From positions 32,001 to 96,000 of the IMG/VR virus record IMGVR_UViG_3300026445_000027: 64,000 nt of DNA. One strand, written 5' to 3'. Made by a program: the position numbers and the translations under genes. This document shows, piece after piece, positions 3,198-51,149 of this stretch; the first letter of the stretch is position 1; each line of letters begins with the position of its first letter. Source of the stretch: a virus. The notes under the pieces are model-generated. The model had not been told where the DNA came from, did not search any database, and saw only the letters and a list, made by a program, of their open reading frames with translations.

Positions 3198-5302
3198 TCT
3201 TCCACCGGCAACTTGCGGATGTAGGAGTTGTCGATACCACGTACAGCGTAACGACGTGGGTCTTTCTCCAAGTTGACTGACTTGAGCACGCTGCGATCAG
3301 TCAACTTACCGTTAGCAGTGGTGCTGGCTACGATATGTGGCTTAAGCGGTGTGTACAGTCTGGTCAACGAGTCCATGCTGCGGATACCGTCCATGTTGGA
3401 CTGGTAGTTCAACTCTACGCCACTGAAGTCAGCAGTAAGCTTGTTACCAGGACCCATCAGGTCCGAGTTACCTACGAACACCTCGTTAATCAGTTCAGTA
3501 ACCGCTACGTCATCGTCCATCAGCTTAATGACGTGGATGGTGTAGGAACTAAGCTGGGTCATGATATCAATCAGGTCACTCTGTTTGATGCGCATGTTAG
3601 GCTGGATGTTGGTGTCCCAGCCAGTTACCCTTTTGAAGATGTCCCAAGCAAACGCTTTACACTCAGCAGCAGTGTAATCACTAAAGTCGAACTTGTACTC
3701 GTTAAGCAACTCGTCATACCGAGTGAAGTCACCCAGCTTAACGATACCGGACGTATAAACAGTCTTGGTGGCTTGTTTAACCCGCGCACGTTTGTTCAGG
3801 TCGTAGAACTGACTGTACAGTTTCTTGTGTTTCCACATGGTCTCGTACACATCGAATGCGTACTGGATCAAGTAGTCAGGCGCTACGAAATTGGCTACTG
3901 GGAACCACAGCGCTAGGATGTCCTCTGCCAAGTATTTCGGGTAAACGTATTTCTTACCGCCAATTGCCAAGATTTCCTTGACAGTAGGGGGCTTGATCCG
4001 CATCACGTTCTGGTAGTAAACCGGACAGATATGTACAGGGTTGTCACCATTGGAGTAATCAACCAAATACTTCCAGACGTGGTAAGCGTCAGTAACTGGG
4101 AGACGGACCTGTCTACCGGTCTTTGGATCGTTAACGATAACACGCCCCAGGAACTTCTTGTTACCTGCTAGGTAAACCCATTCGTTCTTAACCACCGACA
4201 TTAGTGTGTCTACGTGCCGGTTGGTGTAGTCGCGCATGGCAGACTCTAACGCTTTAGTAGGAAGCTCTGAGTGTAACGAGTTCTCGCCCTTGGCTACTGC
4301 GTCTTCCTGGTAGATAGTGGTGAAGTCGTAGTTGTCCTTAGCGAGTGGTTGTTGCTTCTCGATAAGGGCGGGGGTATCGATGTACGTTGGATCGCGACCG
4401 TAGTCGTCGATCAGGTTAAGGTTAAGGCGACGGTACAGCGGGGTAGGTGTAAGGTCTTCTACCTGGGTGGCGGTACCTTCTACCATGTCATATTTAGCGA
4501 GGGGGATGTTTGCTTCGGTAAGCATATTTTGCAATAGCTTATCAAAGGTAAACGACTGCCCTGGGTTATTACGCAGCCAAGCAATGTTGCGGAACAGCCA
4601 CATGGTCTGTTTACGCGTCAGGCTGTTTTTGTACTTTGAAAACTCGCCGTACGAATCTATATGACTCCAAATAAAGAAGTCGTGACTATGCCGGGTGCGC
4701 ATGTGCTCTAAGCGGATGGTCCCAATCCCTTGCAGGATCGACGCATAAAGCAGCTCCGACATCATCGGCATGAATAGGTCGTCGGTATAGTTGTATTCGT
4801 GACCCATGATCTGGGACACTACCGACTTGATGTATTTCTGCAACTCCGGTATTAACTGGGTTTCATTCCAGAGTACCAATTTGGTATTGTAACGGAGGAT
4901 CTTATAGTCCTCGGCCTCTATGGTCTCGCTATAGGGGATCGGCTGCAGGATACCCCGGATCAGCGTAGGCTGGGCTGGGTATTCAGCGACCAACCGATTA
5001 AACCAGTACGTGCCTTTAGCGTACTCGCGTGCGGTAGCCAAGTGCAGCTTGAGGTTCTCTTTGTTGAAGACGATTTCTTCATCGGTGTCAAGAGACCGGA
5101 TCACCATAGGGACGTCAGTCTCGTGGTAATCGCCGTTAAGGTTCATGTAGTAACGCCACGTGGTCTTGTCTTCACTGATCACATGTCCTACACGTTCCAA
5201 TGCTTGGTTGTACCGCTTCGCCCAGAGTTCGATCTTGACGATCATAGTTCTTGTTAGGGCGAACGTGTCCCTGAAGAACTTGTCCTTATCCGCATTGTTC
5301 AT
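3194..5302 (-). CDS. Virion structural protein, probably baseplate (phiKZ gp128-like by synteny)
   Basis: 702 aa, divergent from the portal gene; size and position fit the conserved core. Confidence 0.55.
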   Translation of the reverse strand: MNNADKDKFFRDTFALTRTMIVKIELWAKRYNQALERVGHVISEDKTTWRYYMNLNGDYHETDVPMVIRSLDTDEEIVFNKENLKLHLATAREYAKGTYWFNRLVAEYPAQPTLIRGILQPIPYSETIEAEDYKILRYNTKLVLWNETQLIPELQKYIKSVVSQIMGHEYNYTDDLFMPMMSELLYASILQGIGTIRLEHMRTRHSHDFFIWSHIDSYGEFSKYKNSLTRKQTMWLFRNIAWLRNNPGQSFTFDKLLQNMLTEANIPLAKYDMVEGTATQVEDLTPTPLYRRLNLNLIDDYGRDPTYIDTPALIEKQQPLAKDNYDFTTIYQEDAVAKGENSLHSELPTKALESAMRDYTNRHVDTLMSVVKNEWVYLAGNKKFLGRVIVNDPKTGRQVRLPVTDAYHVWKYLVDYSNGDNPVHICPVYYQNVMRIKPPTVKEILAIGGKKYVYPKYLAEDILALWFPVANFVAPDYLIQYAFDVYETMWKHKKLYSQFYDLNKRARVKQATKTVYTSGIVKLGDFTRYDELLNEYKFDFSDYTAAECKAFAWDIFKRVTGWDTNIQPNMRIKQSDLIDIMTQLSSYTIHVIKLMDDDVAVTELINEVFVGNSDLMGPGNKLTADFSGVELNYQSNMDGIRSMDSLTRLYTPLKPHIVASTTANGKLTDRSVLKSVNLEKDPRRYAVRGIDNSYIRKLPVEE

Positions 5303-8360: not shown

Positions 8361-8420
8361 AGCAAAAAAAGAAGTAACGTCTATAACCCCTACCCAGCCA
8401 ATGGCTGGGTAGGGGTTATA
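8361..8420. terminator. Bidirectional terminator hairpin, with a T-tract on the minus strand
   Basis: Stem TATAACCCCTACCCAGCC/GGCTGGGTAGGGGTTATA (8382-8420) between convergent genes, plus an A7 run at 8364-8370. Confidence 0.85.
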
Positions 8421-9624: not shown

Positions 9625-9653
9625 AAAAAAAAAGAAGGACTCCGAAGAGTCCT
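9625..9653 (-). terminator. Rho-independent terminator with UUCG loop
   Basis: Minus strand AGGACTC-TTCG-GAGTCCT followed by TCTTTTTTTTT. Confidence 0.85.
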
Positions 9654-16655: not shown

Positions 16656-16712
16656 GCAAAAAAAAAGAAGTAATACCACCCCTAGCCCCGCAAAGGGCTA
16701 GGGGTGGTATTA
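16656..16712 (-). terminator. Terminator of the major capsid gene
   Basis: 18-bp stem TAATACCACCCCTAGCCC/GGGCTAGGGGTGGTATTA, then CTTCTTTTTTTTT on the minus strand. Confidence 0.9.
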
Positions 16713-28797: not shown

Positions 28798-29883
28798 TTA
28801 TTTAAGATCCTTGTCCACACTTTGGTTGTACACGACACCAGTGCACCCAATAGTGGCGGCAGCGCGAATGCACTTAGCGATCAGTTCCTGGAGGAAACTC
28901 AAGTTAGCCATAGCGGTGGTAACCATCGACTTAACACCGCTAGCAACGAGTTTAGCACCAGTCGAATCTTTAACGTCTAACGAACTGGCAAACTTGATGG
29001 ACTCGTTCAGACCTTTCACCACATTCGTTTCCATGTCGGTGATTTTCTTGGTAGCGTCACTAGACAACTTGTTACTAGCGCGGGCTGCTTTAAGTACAGC
29101 CAGGTTACCAGCAGCAGTGGGCTGGAACTTAAGGGTAACTCCTTTCTTGGCCTTGGTGATCTTGCCATTGGCACGGCCGATCAGTTTACCGTTATCTGCA
29201 ATATCCAGGACCACACCACCAATGAACGGGCCATCCTTAAACAGCTTGTTGATAGCACTGATATGCTCGGAGCGGGCTTTGTCCATGTCTTCTTTGGCAT
29301 TGGACAACATGCCGTCTTTAACGTTAACGTTAATGTGGTTAACGTCGTCGATGTATTTCTGTACTTCTTTGAGGTAAGGTTCCAGTTGCTTGGTAATCAC
29401 CTCGTTAACTTTAGACAGGGATTTAGTTACCCAGCCAATGTCGCTACCGGGATTACCGGAACCATCCCAAATACGGGTATAGTCTTTAGGGTAGGGAACT
29501 GGATCCTTGTCTACCCCTTTTACTTCAATCGCTTTCTCGGCTTTCTCAGTAGTGCGCTCGATTTGTGCGGAGCTGTTGCCGAAGAAGCTAAAGATCCATT
29601 TGAAAAACTTCTTGATGTTTTCGATGAAGGCATTAAAGCCTTTACCGATAGTCTCGAAGAAACCTTCGTTACCATCTACCCGACGTGGTTGTACACGGGC
29701 TTCCTGGATAATGAAACGATAGAAACTTTCAGTACCAGTTACGTCACCTTTGTCGTCATATTCCTTAGAAAGATCATCTTCATCTTTCTCTGGGAGTTCT
29801 GGTTCTTTAGTCTGGGACTGTTCCCAGACTTCCATTACGGTTGGCGTGTTCACAAAGCGTAACGGGGCTACGTATTCAGACAT
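28798..29883 (-). CDS. Internal head/ejection protein
   Basis: Start moved to the ATG at 29883 (MSEYV; AGGA SD). Acidic propeptide with GTE/GNE, then GFFETIGKGF...FFKWIFSFF. Confidence 0.7.
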   Translation of the reverse strand: MSEYVAPLRFVNTPTVMEVWEQSQTKEPELPEKDEDDLSKEYDDKGDVTGTESFYRFIIQEARVQPRRVDGNEGFFETIGKGFNAFIENIKKFFKWIFSFFGNSSAQIERTTEKAEKAIEVKGVDKDPVPYPKDYTRIWDGSGNPGSDIGWVTKSLSKVNEVITKQLEPYLKEVQKYIDDVNHINVNVKDGMLSNAKEDMDKARSEHISAINKLFKDGPFIGGVVLDIADNGKLIGRANGKITKAKKGVTLKFQPTAAGNLAVLKAARASNKLSSDATKKITDMETNVVKGLNESIKFASSLDVKDSTGAKLVASGVKSMVTTAMANLSFLQELIAKCIRAAATIGCTGVVYNQSVDKDLK

Positions 29884-29936
29884 GTTTGTTATCCTGGTAA
29901 TTGGACGATAGCGACCTATAGCATTTAAGCGAAAAT

Positions 29937-29987
29937 GCAAAAAAAAGAAATATAATAACCTACCAGCCCCGAAGGACTGGTAGGTTA
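29937..29987 (-). terminator. Terminator with UUCG loop
   Basis: Stem TAACCTACCAG.CC/GG.CTGGTAGGTTA, with a T-tract downstream on the minus strand. Confidence 0.8.
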
Positions 29988-30009
29988 CCATTAAGGGTTA
30001 AGCCGAAGC

Positions 30010-31341: not shown

Positions 31342-32346
31342 TCACACAAAGACACCCAGCACACCATGAATGTACCGGTCAGTATAGCTGATCACCCGAG
31401 GAGTGAATCCGCTATAAAATGCGAGAGCATCTGAATCACCACCTAATAAACGTTCAACGTCTTTCAGGGCGCTCTTACTTACCTTGTCCAAATTACCTAA
31501 GCTAGGCTCTACAGCTTTCACCATGTCGCCCCAGGATTTGATGAAACCCAGATAACTTTCAAAGTTCGCTTTAAAGCGTTTGTGCATACCATTGACTTTA
31601 TCGAGTCTAACGAGCAAAGAGCTCACATCAGATTTCGACATTTCAACAGTCGCTGGTGACCCAGCTGTAGTGTCCCCGTTCATAAGATATTTAGTATTCG
31701 ATTCATCGAACACCATTACCTTACCGCCAGGCAGCTTATCGGAGCTGTACTCACTACCACTATGGTGGCTAAAGTTAAGCACCGGGTACTTCAAGGCGTT
31801 GTGTTTATCTATGATCTCGTACAGGTCTTCGGTGGTATCTGCATTACGCAACCCACGCAGTACACCCATACGTGCATCCAAATGGTCCAGGACTGCCTTG
31901 GCGTGCTTGTCCACTAACTCCAGGGTATGGAGCAGTGTGTCCAGGTCTTTACTGATGTCCTCGTGGTCGCCGCCACTAGTGATAAGGTTGAGCTTATCCT
32001 TAGTGATCTTGACCTCGTGAGCATCAGACCGTGAGAACTGTTGGAGGATCTTGCGGATCAACACATCGTTATCAGCGAAAGCCTTAGACAACAAGTTACC
32101 AGCCCCACCTAGTACGTTGGCAAAGGCACTAACGGTTTTACCGCCTACCCAACCAACAGTAGTAAGTAGACCACCACCCAAACTACCCATGCCATTTACC
32201 AGGGTCCCCAATACTTCTGTCAGAGCCTCATTACCGGTTACTGCTTCGTGGACAGCCACGTGTAGCTTTTGCAGACCGTTATTGAACTCTAGCAGCTCCA
32301 AATGGGTTTCCATGCCCTGGATGTAAAGTTGCTTTAACTCACTCAT
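31342..32346 (-). CDS. Internal head protein
   Basis: 334 aa with GME/GNE sites followed by a Gly-rich hydrophobic helix; GGAGG SD. Confidence 0.65.
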   Translation of the reverse strand: MSELKQLYIQGMETHLELLEFNNGLQKLHVAVHEAVTGNEALTEVLGTLVNGMGSLGGGLLTTVGWVGGKTVSAFANVLGGAGNLLSKAFADNDVLIRKILQQFSRSDAHEVKITKDKLNLITSGGDHEDISKDLDTLLHTLELVDKHAKAVLDHLDARMGVLRGLRNADTTEDLYEIIDKHNALKYPVLNFSHHSGSEYSSDKLPGGKVMVFDESNTKYLMNGDTTAGSPATVEMSKSDVSSLLVRLDKVNGMHKRFKANFESYLGFIKSWGDMVKAVEPSLGNLDKVSKSALKDVERLLGGDSDALAFYSGFTPRVISYTDRYIHGVLGVFV

Positions 32347-48166: not shown

Positions 48167-48200
48167 AATACCCCCTAGCCCGTTAAGGCTAGGGGGTATT
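48167..48200 (-). terminator. Terminator hairpin
   Basis: AATACCCCCTAGCC/GGCTAGGGGGTATT downstream of the 48206 ORF. Confidence 0.8.
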
Positions 48201-48205
48201 AAACG

Positions 48206-48673
48206 CTAACGGGGTTTTACTAATCGTGGATCAAAGCCAGCTTTACGGAGATCTTCCTGTTGCTCTTTCGGTAACCCTTGTCGCTGTTCTTCTGCTTTAC
48301 GACGGGCTTCTTCAGCCTTATCGCGTTTGTTGAGGCCTTTACTAACAGCCTCTAGAAACTCATCCACTACAGCAGACGGCATTTCCAGGTAGTCCTTAGG
48401 AGTCATTAACTCACCTAGCTTATGGTATCCGAAGTACTCACCTACCTGTTCCGTCGACCATGGGTGGAAGAAAGCGTTCTCAGCAGGGTTGTAGGCGATC
48501 GAGGAGTAAGGTGTACGTGTTTTAGGATCATAGCGCTCGAAGTTGATGTCTACCATCATTTTCTCATTGAGCAGCAAGGTCTCCGGTAGCATCTGTTTGA
48601 CAGACTTGCCCAACAGGCTACGAGTGATACCTTCATGAACCGTATTAAACGTTACCTTACCCCCCGGTCCCAC
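48206..48673 (-). CDS. Hypothetical protein; probable -1 frameshift extension of the upstream gene
   Basis: GTG start with a poorly spaced SD. The frame is open back through the T7 run in the upstream gene. Contains MTPKDYLEMP. Confidence 0.55.
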   Translation of the reverse strand: MGPGGKVTFNTVHEGITRSLLGKSVKQMLPETLLLNEKMMVDINFERYDPKTRTPYSSIAYNPAENAFFHPWSTEQVGEYFGYHKLGELMTPKDYLEMPSAVVDEFLEAVSKGLNKRDKAEEARRKAEEQRQGLPKEQQEDLRKAGFDPRLVKPR

Positions 48674-48678
48674 TTTAC

Positions 48679-50370
48679 CTATTCGGAGAGGGCTTCTGCC
48701 CGTACGTCGTGGTTTTCCGCGGCGCTCTGAATCATCAGCAACTGGATGTGGGTAAAAAAAGCCATGATCGGATCGATCGGGGTGTAGCCCAGCTTACGCA
48801 GCTTGATGTTGTCCGGATCTTCCAGATGACCTTGGTTGGTCTTGCACTTCGGACAGTCGAAGTTCTGCAGGCCGACGAAGGTCTTCGACAGGAACGGTAC
48901 CTTGTTGATGATATCTCGGGTCAGCGCACGGTTGAGCCATGGGCTGTCCTTGATAACCTCCAATAGGCCGCCGTTGAAGTCGTTCATGTCTTTGGCATTC
49001 TGCCGATCCAGGATGTGGTCCTTGTCATCGGAGTCAGGTGCTGCCACAGCCACGAACTTCGAGATCCAGTGGATGTATTCGGTGGCGCCCAGGTCAGTGT
49101 ACAGCATATTGCGCTGGGTGTCGTACTCTTCCGGATCGATGATGCTGGTACGCAGTTCAGCCAGCTTAGGCGAGATCCGACCGGCGTAGTAGTCGAAGGT
49201 CATGAACGCATCGGCCAACGACGGCGAAGCCAGCTCCAGGTACAGCGACTGGTCTTCGTTGTACACCTTGTTGGTGTCCAAGCCGAAGTGTGCGGCATTG
49301 ATCAGCGCCAGGGTTTCTTCGCTGGTGTAGGTGACCTTATGGTTGAAGAGGTTGGCGTAGATAGCAGCCTCTTCATCCGTGGTGTGGTAGTCACGGTGGT
49401 GTACCAGGAGTTCAGGGTCTACCAGCTGGAAGTCCTTCCAATCGCAACCAGGCTTGGAGCAGATCAGTTGCATGCCAACACCTTTGCTGGTGTAAGCGCG
49501 CAGCAGAGCCATGGTCAGTGCATCGATATCCGACCAACGAATGATCGAGGCCAGCTGACGGTAGTCACCGATGTCGCTGATACTGGAATAGGTCAGACGC
49601 TCGGCAATGAAGTTCCAGATAACGCGAGCAGCAGCCACACGGGCCAGTACTACGCTATTGTTGTTCACTTGACGCACGTAGCCTTTGATCGACGCTTTGA
49701 TGTCGTTGATCAGCTGACCCATGTCCATCTTGGACGGACGAGCCATTACCAGCTTGGTGAACGAGTTGCGCAGCTCGATGTCGAACATCAAGCGGCCGTC
49801 TTCGGCCTTCAGGGAACGACGACGCATGATCTCAGAGTCTTTCAGACCCTTACCGCCGTTACCAGGCTTACGACCGGAGATATCTGGAGTTACCAGACCG
49901 CCACGGTCGGAGACGTTGGAGATTCCGAGTTCACGGATCGCATTGGACCGACTACGGACGTCGTCCAGGTATTCGGTGTAGAACGCCACCATGCGCTGTG
50001 CTTTGTCTTCGGCTTCTTCCAGAGTCAGGTCTGGATAGTTGTCTTCGACGAAGCGAGCCCAGTCTTGGTTCTGCTTTTCAGCAGCCAGGGCATAACGTTG
50101 TGGGTCTTCCTGCGCATAGCGCTCGACGGTAAGCTTCTGGATGTACGGAGACATCAGCTTAGCATCGTGGTCACGGCTTTCTTTACTGTTTCCAAGAAAT
50201 ACCGTGATGAAGCCCTGTGCCCGCTCGTCTTCAGTAAGCTGACGGATAAAGCTGTTCTTTGGCTCTACCCGGGTATTCATGGTGGTGTTGCCAGCCTCGT
50301 GCACCTGGCTATAGCTAGCCTTCGGGCGCTCTGGTACTGGTTGTCCTTCGTTCAGTTCGTCATTAGACAT
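48679..50370 (-). CDS. Conserved Cys-motif protein (phiKZ gp77-like by synteny); candidate tail/baseplate assembly chaperone
   Basis: 563 aa with CSKPGC and CPKC pairs and AFF encoded by GCT TTT TTT near the C-terminus. Confidence 0.55.
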   Translation of the reverse strand: MSNDELNEGQPVPERPKASYSQVHEAGNTTMNTRVEPKNSFIRQLTEDERAQGFITVFLGNSKESRDHDAKLMSPYIQKLTVERYAQEDPQRYALAAEKQNQDWARFVEDNYPDLTLEEAEDKAQRMVAFYTEYLDDVRSRSNAIRELGISNVSDRGGLVTPDISGRKPGNGGKGLKDSEIMRRRSLKAEDGRLMFDIELRNSFTKLVMARPSKMDMGQLINDIKASIKGYVRQVNNNSVVLARVAAARVIWNFIAERLTYSSISDIGDYRQLASIIRWSDIDALTMALLRAYTSKGVGMQLICSKPGCDWKDFQLVDPELLVHHRDYHTTDEEAAIYANLFNHKVTYTSEETLALINAAHFGLDTNKVYNEDQSLYLELASPSLADAFMTFDYYAGRISPKLAELRTSIIDPEEYDTQRNMLYTDLGATEYIHWISKFVAVAAPDSDDKDHILDRQNAKDMNDFNGGLLEVIKDSPWLNRALTRDIINKVPFLSKTFVGLQNFDCPKCKTNQGHLEDPDNIKLRKLGYTPIDPIMAFFTHIQLLMIQSAAENHDVRAEALSE

Positions 50371-50381
50371 AAAACAAACCC

Positions 50382-51149
50382 TTAGTTGATATCTTTGATC
50401 ACGCGAGGCTCGTCACCCATCGGGGTGAGTTCAGCCATGGAGATGTCACCAGCTTCGATGAACTCGGCGGGAAGGTCGTCTTCTTCATCGGCAGGCGACT
50501 CAGGTACTTCTACCTGGGCGATAGTACGATACAGGTGTTGAATACGGGCGATACGCTGGTCGTGCAACTCGAACGCGTAGTTCATGTCGGTAGTACCAGG
50601 TTCTTTGTGTTCTTTGGTGTACTCTTCGATCATTGCCTGGTTAGGCTTCAGCAGTTCTTCGAATACCGGACGGGCGTGGAAGTGCATGCACTCGGTCACG
50701 TTGTCGAACAGGTGGACGTAGATCTCGACGAAGTCGTCCATGGTCTGGCCTTCATCCATCAGGATGCGGATCGCAGTCATGTCTTCGGCGATTTGCACGA
50801 TCAGACGGTCGAAGTTGTCTACCAGTTCCTGAATAGCTGGCGTGAACTCGATCTTGCCCTCGTTCTTGAGGATCTCGGCAACTTCCACAGCGGAGTGGAT
50901 AGGTGCGAACATTTCCACGATGCCCAGGATCTGTTTAGTGACCTCCAGGTTATCCGGCAGTTTCTTGCCTTGCTTCTTGTCGACCAGAAGATCCTTGTAC
51001 TTTCCGACGGTAGCCATGATACCCTTGCTGGCCAGTTCGAACTGGAGCTTGGAATTGGAAACCCGACGGACTTCAGTCTTCTTGCCACCTTTACGCTTCT
51101 TAGCGCGTTGTTGACGTTTTGCTGCCATGGCTTGATTTTTAGTGCCCAT
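50382..51149 (-). CDS. Hypothetical protein with basic N-tail and acidic C-tail
   Basis: 255 aa; N-terminal KRQQRAKKRKGGKKTEVRR. Confidence 0.7.
   Translation of the reverse strand: MGTKNQAMAAKRQQRAKKRKGGKKTEVRRVSNSKLQFELASKGIMATVGKYKDLLVDKKQGKKLPDNLEVTKQILGIVEMFAPIHSAVEVAEILKNEGKIEFTPAIQELVDNFDRLIVQIAEDMTAIRILMDEGQTMDDFVEIYVHLFDNVTECMHFHARPVFEELLKPNQAMIEEYTKEHKEPGTTDMNYAFELHDQRIARIQHLYRTIAQVEVPESPADEEDDLPAEFIEAGDISMAELTPMGDEPRVIKDIN

Follow-up and report, generated by a model that had tools for sequence, protein, structure and literature searches.

The tail assembly chaperones gpG/gpGT of phage lambda and gpE/gpE+E' of phage P2 are reportedly produced by a −1 frameshift that is conserved among long-tailed phages. 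In both systems, an X_XXY_YYZ heptamer located toward the 3′ end of the first open reading frame (ORF) is the site of the slip, which yields two products with a common N-terminal part of about 100–140 amino acids, the longer of which carries an extension that resembles a separate small gene. A stimulatory element is not required at phage tail-chaperone sites such as lambda G GGA AAG and P2 T TTT TTG. T4 gp26 (208 amino acids) and gp51 (249 amino acids), which belong to the Pfam family PF12322 (T4_baseplate), are encoded by two genes, plus an internal start in gene 26, with no frameshifting. Here, we describe a locus on the minus strand of a 64,000-nucleotide stretch of viral DNA (hereafter the window), which corresponds to positions 32,001 to 96,000 of the IMG/VR virus record IMGVR_UViG_3300026445_000027. 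The locus, at positions 48206–50370 of the window, contains a 563-amino-acid ORF that is orthologous to gp77 of phage phiKZ and, downstream of it, a 155-amino-acid ORF in the −1 frame. Comparison with relatives indicates that the two ORFs very probably constitute one recoded gene rather than two, and we put the probability that the programmed −1 frameshift is real at about 0.9.

The gp77-like locus parallels lambda G/GT and P2 E/E+E' in the N-terminal part that its two predicted products would share, in the position of an X_XXY_YYZ site close to the 3′ end of the first ORF, and in an extension with the appearance of a small gene of its own. Further parallels are the T run at the P2 site (T_TTT_TTG), the lack of any need for a stimulatory structure and the seeming absence of the proteins from virions. 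By contrast, the shared part comprises 520–650 amino acids in the gp77 family (539 in the window) instead of about 100–140, the family has no match to any tail-assembly-chaperone family, and the gene adjoins gp78/gp79/gp80-type genes instead of lying between the tail tube and tape-measure genes. A first inspection of the letters alone (the sequence-only reading) had proposed a tail chaperone of the G/GT type. The proposal holds as an analogy of expression logic, and does not hold for size (563 versus about 140 amino acids), family (Pfam and PHROGs) or location. That reading also proposed a putative, loose resemblance of the segment MTPKDYLEMPSAVV of the extension to P2 E'.

A slippery heptamer near the end of the gp77-like gene

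The minus strand of the window reads ATG GCT TTT TTT ACC 25 codons before the stop of the 563-amino-acid ORF. The parts of the locus are as follows.

48679..50370, minus strand: 0-frame ORF of 563 amino acids, the short product; ortholog of phiKZ gp77, EL gp47 and 201phi2-1 gp136; phrog_4585
48754..48760, minus strand: slippery heptamer T_TTT_TTT (codons GCT TTT TTT), an in-phase X_XXY_YYZ, 72 nucleotides before the 0-frame stop
48679..48753, minus strand: dual-coding overlap; in the 0 frame, the 24-amino-acid C-terminal tail of the short form (ends EALSE); in the −1 frame, the start of the linker (YPHPV...RSPL)
48206..48754, minus strand: predicted −1 frame extension of 182 codons plus stop; a low-confidence linker of ~30 residues, then a helical domain; phrog_19747; includes the 155-amino-acid GTG ORF
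48673..48206, minus strand: GTG ORF of 155 amino acids, in the −1 frame with respect to the 563-amino-acid ORF (50370 − 48673 = 1697 = 2 mod 3)

Three-frame translation places a −1 stop 13 codons before the slip point, after which this frame is open via YPHPVADDSERRGKPRRTGRSPLRIGK into the GTG ORF. The predicted long product consists of residues 1–539 of the 0-frame ORF followed by the 182 residues of the extension, 721 amino acids in all. On rereading, all the statements of the sequence-only reading about the letters themselves were found to be correct, namely the run of seven T at 48754–48760 as an in-frame U_UUU_UUU, the −1 stop just upstream of it, the product sizes of 563 and 721 amino acids, and the use of TTC for nearby Phe codons. 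TTT accounts for only 11% of the other 18 Phe codons of the 563-amino-acid gene.

In the mechanism that we infer, both for the ribosomal slip with its efficiency and for the function that its products serve, ribosomes on the mRNA of the gp77 family would reach U_UUU_UUU with tRNA-Phe at both UUU codons. The majority would stay in frame and terminate 24 codons further on, giving the 563-amino-acid form. A minority would slip back one base by tandem −1 slippage, read Y-P-H-P-V and go on for 182 codons, giving the 721-amino-acid form. The slip would add a flexible linker of ~30 residues and a helical domain of ~150 residues, and how often ribosomes slip would determine the ratio of the short to the long form, as in lambda G/GT and P2 E/E+E'.

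Runs of seven T occur at five sites in the window, the same number as in shuffled sequences. A T run in the window is thus not unusual by itself, and the signal resides in its in-phase conservation across relatives. The other runs of 7–9 T on the minus strand are found at 8364–8370, 9625–9633, 16658–16666 and 29939–29946. Three of these four are intergenic, and such runs between minus-strand genes may be the U-tracts of terminators. The remaining run falls in the first 17 codons of a mechanically listed ORF (28798..29991), the true start of which may be further downstream.

Conservation of the heptamer and of the −1 frame

Comparison of ~85 distinct loci from named phages, among them an SPN3US-like phage, and from IMG/VR, with hosts that range from Pseudomonas to Bacillus, establishes the heptamer in its phase and the open −1 frame, along with the conservation of each. 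An in-phase slippery heptamer, in the form of T_TTT_TTT, T_TTT_TTC, T_TTT_TTA or G_GTT_TTT, is present in all ~85 loci. In the relatives, the −1 ORF that follows the heptamer spans 150–198 codons, except in two loci that are truncated by the end of their contig. For 40 loci, the distance from the heptamer back to the nearest −1 stop was counted, and it is 6–25 codons. The claim of the sequence-only reading that a programmed −1 frameshift fuses the two ORFs thereby receives strong comparative support, as the conserved heptamer, the phase and the downstream −1 ORF recur in every ortholog examined, with no exception among the ~85 loci.

A megablast search of the locus against phage records, from which near relatives may be missing, gave no match. 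With tblastn, the large protein was found in 69 phage records and the small ORF in 46, side by side and 2 mod 3 apart wherever coordinates were compared. Within the window's clade, the identity of the large protein to those of the named phages is only 33–37%. A profile search of 1.8 billion representative proteins returned 128 relatives of the large protein. The distant relatives match phrog_4585 even more clearly, and one of them matches 246 phage records.

The clade of the window comprises 24 IMG/VR loci, retrieved with an alignment of close homologs, together with Pseudomonas EL (gp47/gp48), Erwinia RisingSun (gp53/gp54), Shewanella FishSpeaker, Raoultella ZK_P1 and Klebsiella Miami. All of them carry NNT TTT TTT in the same phase, 63–81 nucleotides before the 0-frame stop, and the −1 ORF has 167–183 codons wherever the contig extends far enough. 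The −1 peptide keeps F-F-Y-P-x-P at the junction and R-S-P-L at the 0-frame stop, plus a conserved domain beyond.

Outside this clade, T_TTT_TTC or T_TTT_TTA is found in Vibrio Aphrodite1, Vibrio VP4B, Shewanella SXP01, Aeromonas AerS_266 and Kosakonia Kc263, and the −1 ORFs of these five phages (160–174 codons) share their stop codon exactly with the annotated downstream gene. A hidden Markov model (HMM) built from the window's clade missed gp77 in the phiKZ record, a false negative, as the distant member P0082 finds gp77 at an E-value of 3e-52. The orthologs in model phages are phiKZ gp77, 201phi2-1 gp136 (whose record carries the note 'similar to phiKZ gp77 and EL gp47'), Goslar gp81, Erwinia Special G gp271 and Bacillus AgentSmith gp11. 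An in-phase heptamer lies 24–48 nucleotides before the stop in 5/5 of these genes, followed in 5/5 by a −1 ORF of 154–165 codons that ends at the stop of a small annotated gene. The −1 ORF of phiKZ terminates together with gp76.4 at 71442. The first 85 codons of this ORF, at 71685..71939 on the minus strand, are free of ATG, GTG and TTG, and span the 218-nucleotide 'intergenic' gap of the record. The same layout is present in Salmonella JN03, Xanthomonas LucasX, Burkholderia FLC6, Vibrio Yong MS31 and Klebsiella Centimanus, as well as in 41 distinct IMG/VR loci from the phiKZ side of the family, one of which is cut by a contig end.

Five IMG/VR loci were inspected individually. L068 and L083 carry the usual T_TTT_TTT or T_TTT_TTC. 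In the uncultured relatives L074 (heptamer at about 3470–3480) and L090 (about 3210–3220), the sequence TCG GTT TTT ACC/ACG provides an in-phase G_GTT_TTT with V-F in place of F-F, and the −1 ORFs have 169 and 198 codons. The fifth locus, L091, possesses the usual heptamer and, separately, a +1 frame change at about 2300, in the middle of a conserved region and far from the heptamer; this change might stem from misassembly, mark a pseudogene or reflect a second recoding event. In AgentSmith (vB_BspM_AgentSmith, a 200-kb Bacillus phage), gp11/gp12 show an in-phase T_TTT_TTA and a −1 ORF of 164 codons. Because AgentSmith shares the gene, the heptamer and the −1 ORF, the recoding reaches beyond the chimalliviruses of Gram-negative hosts.

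The breadth of this sample bears on whether the frame relation might be an artifact. Homopolymers are error-prone in some sequencing chemistries, and a miscounted T run could conceal a gene that is in truth a single in-frame ORF. This explanation is extremely improbable, given that the same phase relation is seen in ~85 independent assemblies, including isolates from many laboratories, with differing heptamers, and that the 0-frame tail past the site is itself conserved, with EALS before the stop in the window's clade.

The locus might instead hold two independent genes, in which case the T run would be a by-product of a conserved Phe-Phe pair and the small ORF would start by itself. In agreement with this explanation, F538 and F539 show no variation within the window's clade, two genes are annotated in public records, and a GTG stands right after the 0-frame stop in the window. 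The codons at the site, however, do not behave as a by-product. TTT is the minority Phe codon elsewhere in the gene; at the remaining Phe positions, its share is 0–25% in most of the genes compared. The residue encoded just before the slip varies (A, S, N, G, T, L, V, I and others), whereas the third base of its codon is T in all loci except L074 and L090, and the variants F-L (Kc263 and AgentSmith, with T_TTT_TTA) and V-F (L074 and L090, with G_GTT_TTT) stay slippery. Since the third base is fixed while the amino acid varies, and since both variants retain slipperiness, it is the slippery pattern that is conserved rather than the residues.

The beginning of the small ORF also argues against independent initiation as the general rule. 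Across relatives, the earliest codon at which the −1 ORF could start is found anywhere between extension codons 28 and 88, and the conserved extension residues F36, L47, G49 and E58 precede the first ATG, GTG or TTG in many genomes. The conserved start of the −1 ORF in these genomes lacks a start codon and is, therefore, reachable there only by frameshifting. The 'intergenic' stretch that follows the 0-frame stop appears to evolve as coding sequence in the −1 frame, with an excess of third-position substitutions of 1.42 between this stop and the first conserved Met, and of 1.80 in the core domain, as calculated on a codon alignment that was built from the −1 translation. The value of 0.94 in the dual-coding overlap, where substitutions are even over codon positions, is as expected for two overlapping frames. 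We consider two independent genes very unlikely on these grounds.

The slip could also take place during transcription, if the RNA polymerase of the phage stuttered on the T run and an extra U put the downstream ORF in frame on some mRNAs. These phages possess unusual RNA polymerases of their own, the homopolymer comprises 7 or 8 T in most family members, and one added U gives the same protein as a −1 ribosomal slip, so that the protein sequence cannot separate the two mechanisms. Strict X_XXY_YYZ phase is, however, needed for the ribosomal mechanism alone, whereas stuttering needs a long homopolymer, for which phase is irrelevant. The run consists of only six T followed by C in ~40% of the loci of a second survey, of six T followed by A in Kc263 and AgentSmith, and of only five T in L074 and L090, and T runs of 5–6 are poor templates for transcriptional slippage. 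Because the phase is strict and the signal persists with six or five T, a ribosomal slip is favoured over a transcriptional one, which we regard as improbable. Provided that the frameshift is real, it is likely to be ribosomal.

The heptamer variants of the family are known from other systems. Accepted ribosomal heptamers include U_UUU_UUA in human immunodeficiency virus 1 (HIV-1), G_GUU_UUU in cardioviruses and porcine reproductive and respiratory syndrome virus (PRRSV), and T_TTT_TTG in P2 E/E+E'. The site of HIV-1 gag-pol is letter for letter the heptamer of Kc263 and AgentSmith, and G_GUU_UUU, which serves for −1/−2 frameshifting in cardioviruses (2B*) and PRRSV (nsp2TF), is letter for letter that of L074 and L090. 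These are sites of eukaryotic viruses that have RNA or protein stimulators, in contrast to the gp77-like locus, in which a stimulator was not found.

Several points weigh against programmed frameshifting at this locus. A search with RNAalifold detected no conserved RNA structure downstream of the heptamer (0 conserved pairs, 19 sequences), and the window's own 90 nucleotides downstream fold no better than shuffles (z = −1.4). The phage of the window has its GTG soon after the 0-frame stop, at extension codon 28, and some independent initiation may occur at this codon. The 721-amino-acid form is, moreover, a product predicted from the sequence alone.

Family, predicted fold and putative function

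In PHROGs, the large protein corresponds to phrog_4585 and the small ORF to phrog_19747, both of unknown function. Neither ORF matches any tail-assembly-chaperone family of Pfam at E ≤ 0.1, nor any other Pfam family. The virion atlas of phiKZ does not name gp77 (PMC13250141), and the virion paper of Goslar names neither gp81 nor gp82. In the record of 201phi2-1, gp138 is marked as identified by mass spectrometry, and gp135 and gp136 are not. The products of the gp77 family look non-structural, and their most likely function is that of a non-virion morphogenesis factor. T4 gp51 is required for assembly and absent from the particle (PMC3004832), and gp77 seems likewise to be absent.

The AlphaFold2 (AF2) model of the 563-amino-acid form (m755afcc61c55) has a predicted local distance difference test (pLDDT) value of 67 and a predicted template modeling (pTM) score of 0.61. 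A search of the predicted viral structures of BFVD with this model, using Foldseek, returned first the orthologs from Aeromonas PS1, Erwinia Special G and phiEaH2, Ralstonia RSF1 and RP12, and Klebsiella Eowyn. Next came 12 models of 225–284 amino acids that are named 'baseplate hub assembly protein, T4-like', 'baseplate hub subunit' or 'baseplate hub assembly chaperone'. The probability of these 12 matches is 0.35–1.0 (mostly 0.7–1.0, with five at 1.0), the E-value 5e-4 to 0.2 and the template modeling (TM) score 0.33–0.53 of the target, in a comparison that has predicted models on both sides and a query with a pLDDT of 67. The feature-based search of the ESM Atlas yielded a neighbour cluster with a score of 0.90, in which 24% of the members carry PF12322. 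T4 gp26 and gp51 are thus predicted-fold neighbours of the 563-amino-acid protein. The gp77-like protein is, on the other hand, more than twice their size. Two Cys pairs, C304/C309 and C506/C509, are conserved in the family; T4 gp51 has two Cys pairs too, but they are not colinear with those of the gp77 family.

The sequence-only reading had noted a likeness to T4 gp26/gp51, which is supported by the predicted fold only (Foldseek against predicted viral structures), and not by HMM and profile–profile comparisons. The results of the latter count against an assembly chaperone of this type. The HMM of PF12322 has no match in the window protein or in 10 + 6 + 76 other family members; in a control, T4 gp26 and gp51 score 216 and 178 bits. 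A transitive link was sought through the 76 weak family members, none of which carries PF12322. Profile–profile alignments (hhalign) with the gp26/gp51 family PF12322, made without secondary-structure information, reached a probability of ≤25%, on a CPxC motif or a 71-column stretch. A solved-structure counterpart of the large protein was not found, either by phmmer or by Foldseek against the PDB at E ≤ 0.001, and a VIA-align wide search of solved structures gave helical-hairpin matches only, with Z up to 7.2 over 70 residues, which is the noise level. Because the sequence methods do not confirm the link, 'gp26/gp51-like' is treated as a fold-level lead only. Based on the predicted models, the gp77 family is perhaps a tail or baseplate chaperone, and possibly an enlarged counterpart of the hub assembly proteins gp26/gp51 of T4, at a likelihood that we place a little short of even.

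For the extension, the AF2 model is poor (pLDDT 60). In BFVD, Foldseek matched it to only two unnamed models, of 134 and 136 amino acids (E-values of 2e-4 and 2e-3), which are probably the products of orthologous small genes. The ESM Atlas gave no usable match for the extension, hhalign against T4 gp51/gp26 gave nothing, and phmmer of the small ORF against solved structures gave chance-level matches only. The complex of extension residues 26–182 with the tail tube protein of this phage, a contact like that of lambda gpT and gpV, was predicted with a score of 0.00 and without controls, a result that weighs neither way. A C-terminal motif, G..h..s-[DE]-[FYW]-[LMI]..P followed by a helix, is visible by eye in the extension from the window's clade to phiKZ, LucasX, JN03 and AgentSmith.

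The surroundings of the gene do not point to the tail. The gene adjoins orthologs of gp78 of phiKZ, of its 'structural head protein' gp79 and of gp80, a subunit of the virion RNA polymerase, a setting that also counts against a tail or baseplate chaperone, and the gp78-type gene stands beside the gp77-type gene in the same order in phiKZ, 201phi2-1, EL, Goslar and others. The tail sheath and tube genes are at about 133–135.5 kb of the 143-kb contig, ~52 kb from the locus. A tape-measure gene was not identified in this genome, and the virion-structure papers of phiKZ and Goslar do not use the term 'tape measure'. The frameshift could then be real and serve a function unrelated to the tail or baseplate, such as the assembly of the head or inner body, the loading of the virion RNA polymerase or a process of the phage nucleus. 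The ~52 kb that separate the locus from the tail tube gene, the missing PF12322 link in sequence profiles, and a fold match that comes from predicted models of middling confidence (pLDDT 67) would all fit such a role. Against it, T4-type baseplate hub assembly proteins are the only named group that recurs among the fold neighbours, and the independent feature-based search points to the same lead. Moreover, the sharing of an N-terminus by two forms through a −1 slip is so far typical of phage tail assembly chaperones, and the gene order of phiKZ-like phages is not strongly modular. We hold a non-tail function to be possible, with the odds leaning against it.

Two further features of the window flank the locus.

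50382..51149, minus strand: upstream co-oriented gene of 255 amino acids at the phiKZ gp78 position (phrog_28183), 11 nucleotides before the gp77-like ORF
48167..48200, minus strand: perfect G+C-rich hairpin of 15 bp, then the U-rich stretch UAUUUUAU, between the −1 ORF stop (48206) and the ATG of the next gene (48164)

The 255-amino-acid gene and the gp77-like ORF are probably part of one transcription unit. In the 5-nucleotide spacer between the 563- and 155-amino-acid ORFs, neither a terminator-like hairpin nor a clear promoter was found. The hairpin at 48167..48200, missed by a simple terminator scan, has a folding energy of −29.6 kcal/mol (z = −6.0), and 0/200 shuffles are as stable. It is likely an intrinsic terminator that closes the transcription unit.

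A broader reading is that the gp77 family is the long-missing assembly chaperone of the tail or baseplate hub of Chimalliviridae, which would link the gp26/gp51 pair and the G/GT-type systems. The latter two would represent two solutions to one need, that is, a core form together with a rarer form that has an extra docking domain, and giant phages would make this second form by a family-wide −1 frameshift at U_UUU_UUN. We regard this link as rather unlikely on the present evidence.

Annotation and meaning for phiKZ-like phages

Two genes are annotated at this locus in every public record examined. The small gene is annotated from an internal ATG in the records of phiKZ (gp76.4, in the region 71442-71905 of NC_004629), EL (gp48), RisingSun (gp54) and Goslar (gp82), which leaves 90–218 nucleotides of conserved coding sequence as 'intergenic'. 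The product names of the orthologs are inconsistent. RisingSun gp53 is a 'putative ZipA-like cell division protein', a label without support in any search made, and the ortholog of Klebsiella KPN8 is a 'putative baseplate protein'. Among the records examined, annotations that point to the baseplate occur in two only, that of KPN8 and that of AgentSmith ('putative baseplate hub assembly protein').

No description of the gp77 frameshift was found in the searchable literature or the genome records on phiKZ-like and jumbo phages, and the mentions of 'gp77' that were found in the literature refer to the numbering of other phages. These searches agree with the claim of the sequence-only reading that the frameshift is unreported in phiKZ-like phages.

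The nucleus-forming phages related to phiKZ are an intensively studied model and candidates for phage therapy, and a core gene of the family is apparently mis-annotated in every public record examined. The small downstream 'gene' (phiKZ gp76.4, EL gp48, Goslar gp82 and others) would be the tail of a longer frameshift product, and up to 218 nucleotides of 'intergenic' DNA would be coding. The locus offers a testable case of programmed frameshifting that appears to have persisted throughout a very deep lineage of phages, whose hosts range from Pseudomonas to Bacillus, with natural heptamer variants and no evident stimulator. The gp77 family is, in addition, a candidate for an assembly factor of the giant tail and baseplate, structures that still lack a named chaperone. 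If the link to the gp26/gp51 and G/GT systems holds true, the heptamer would rank among the most widely conserved phage recoding signals known outside the classic tail-chaperone genes.

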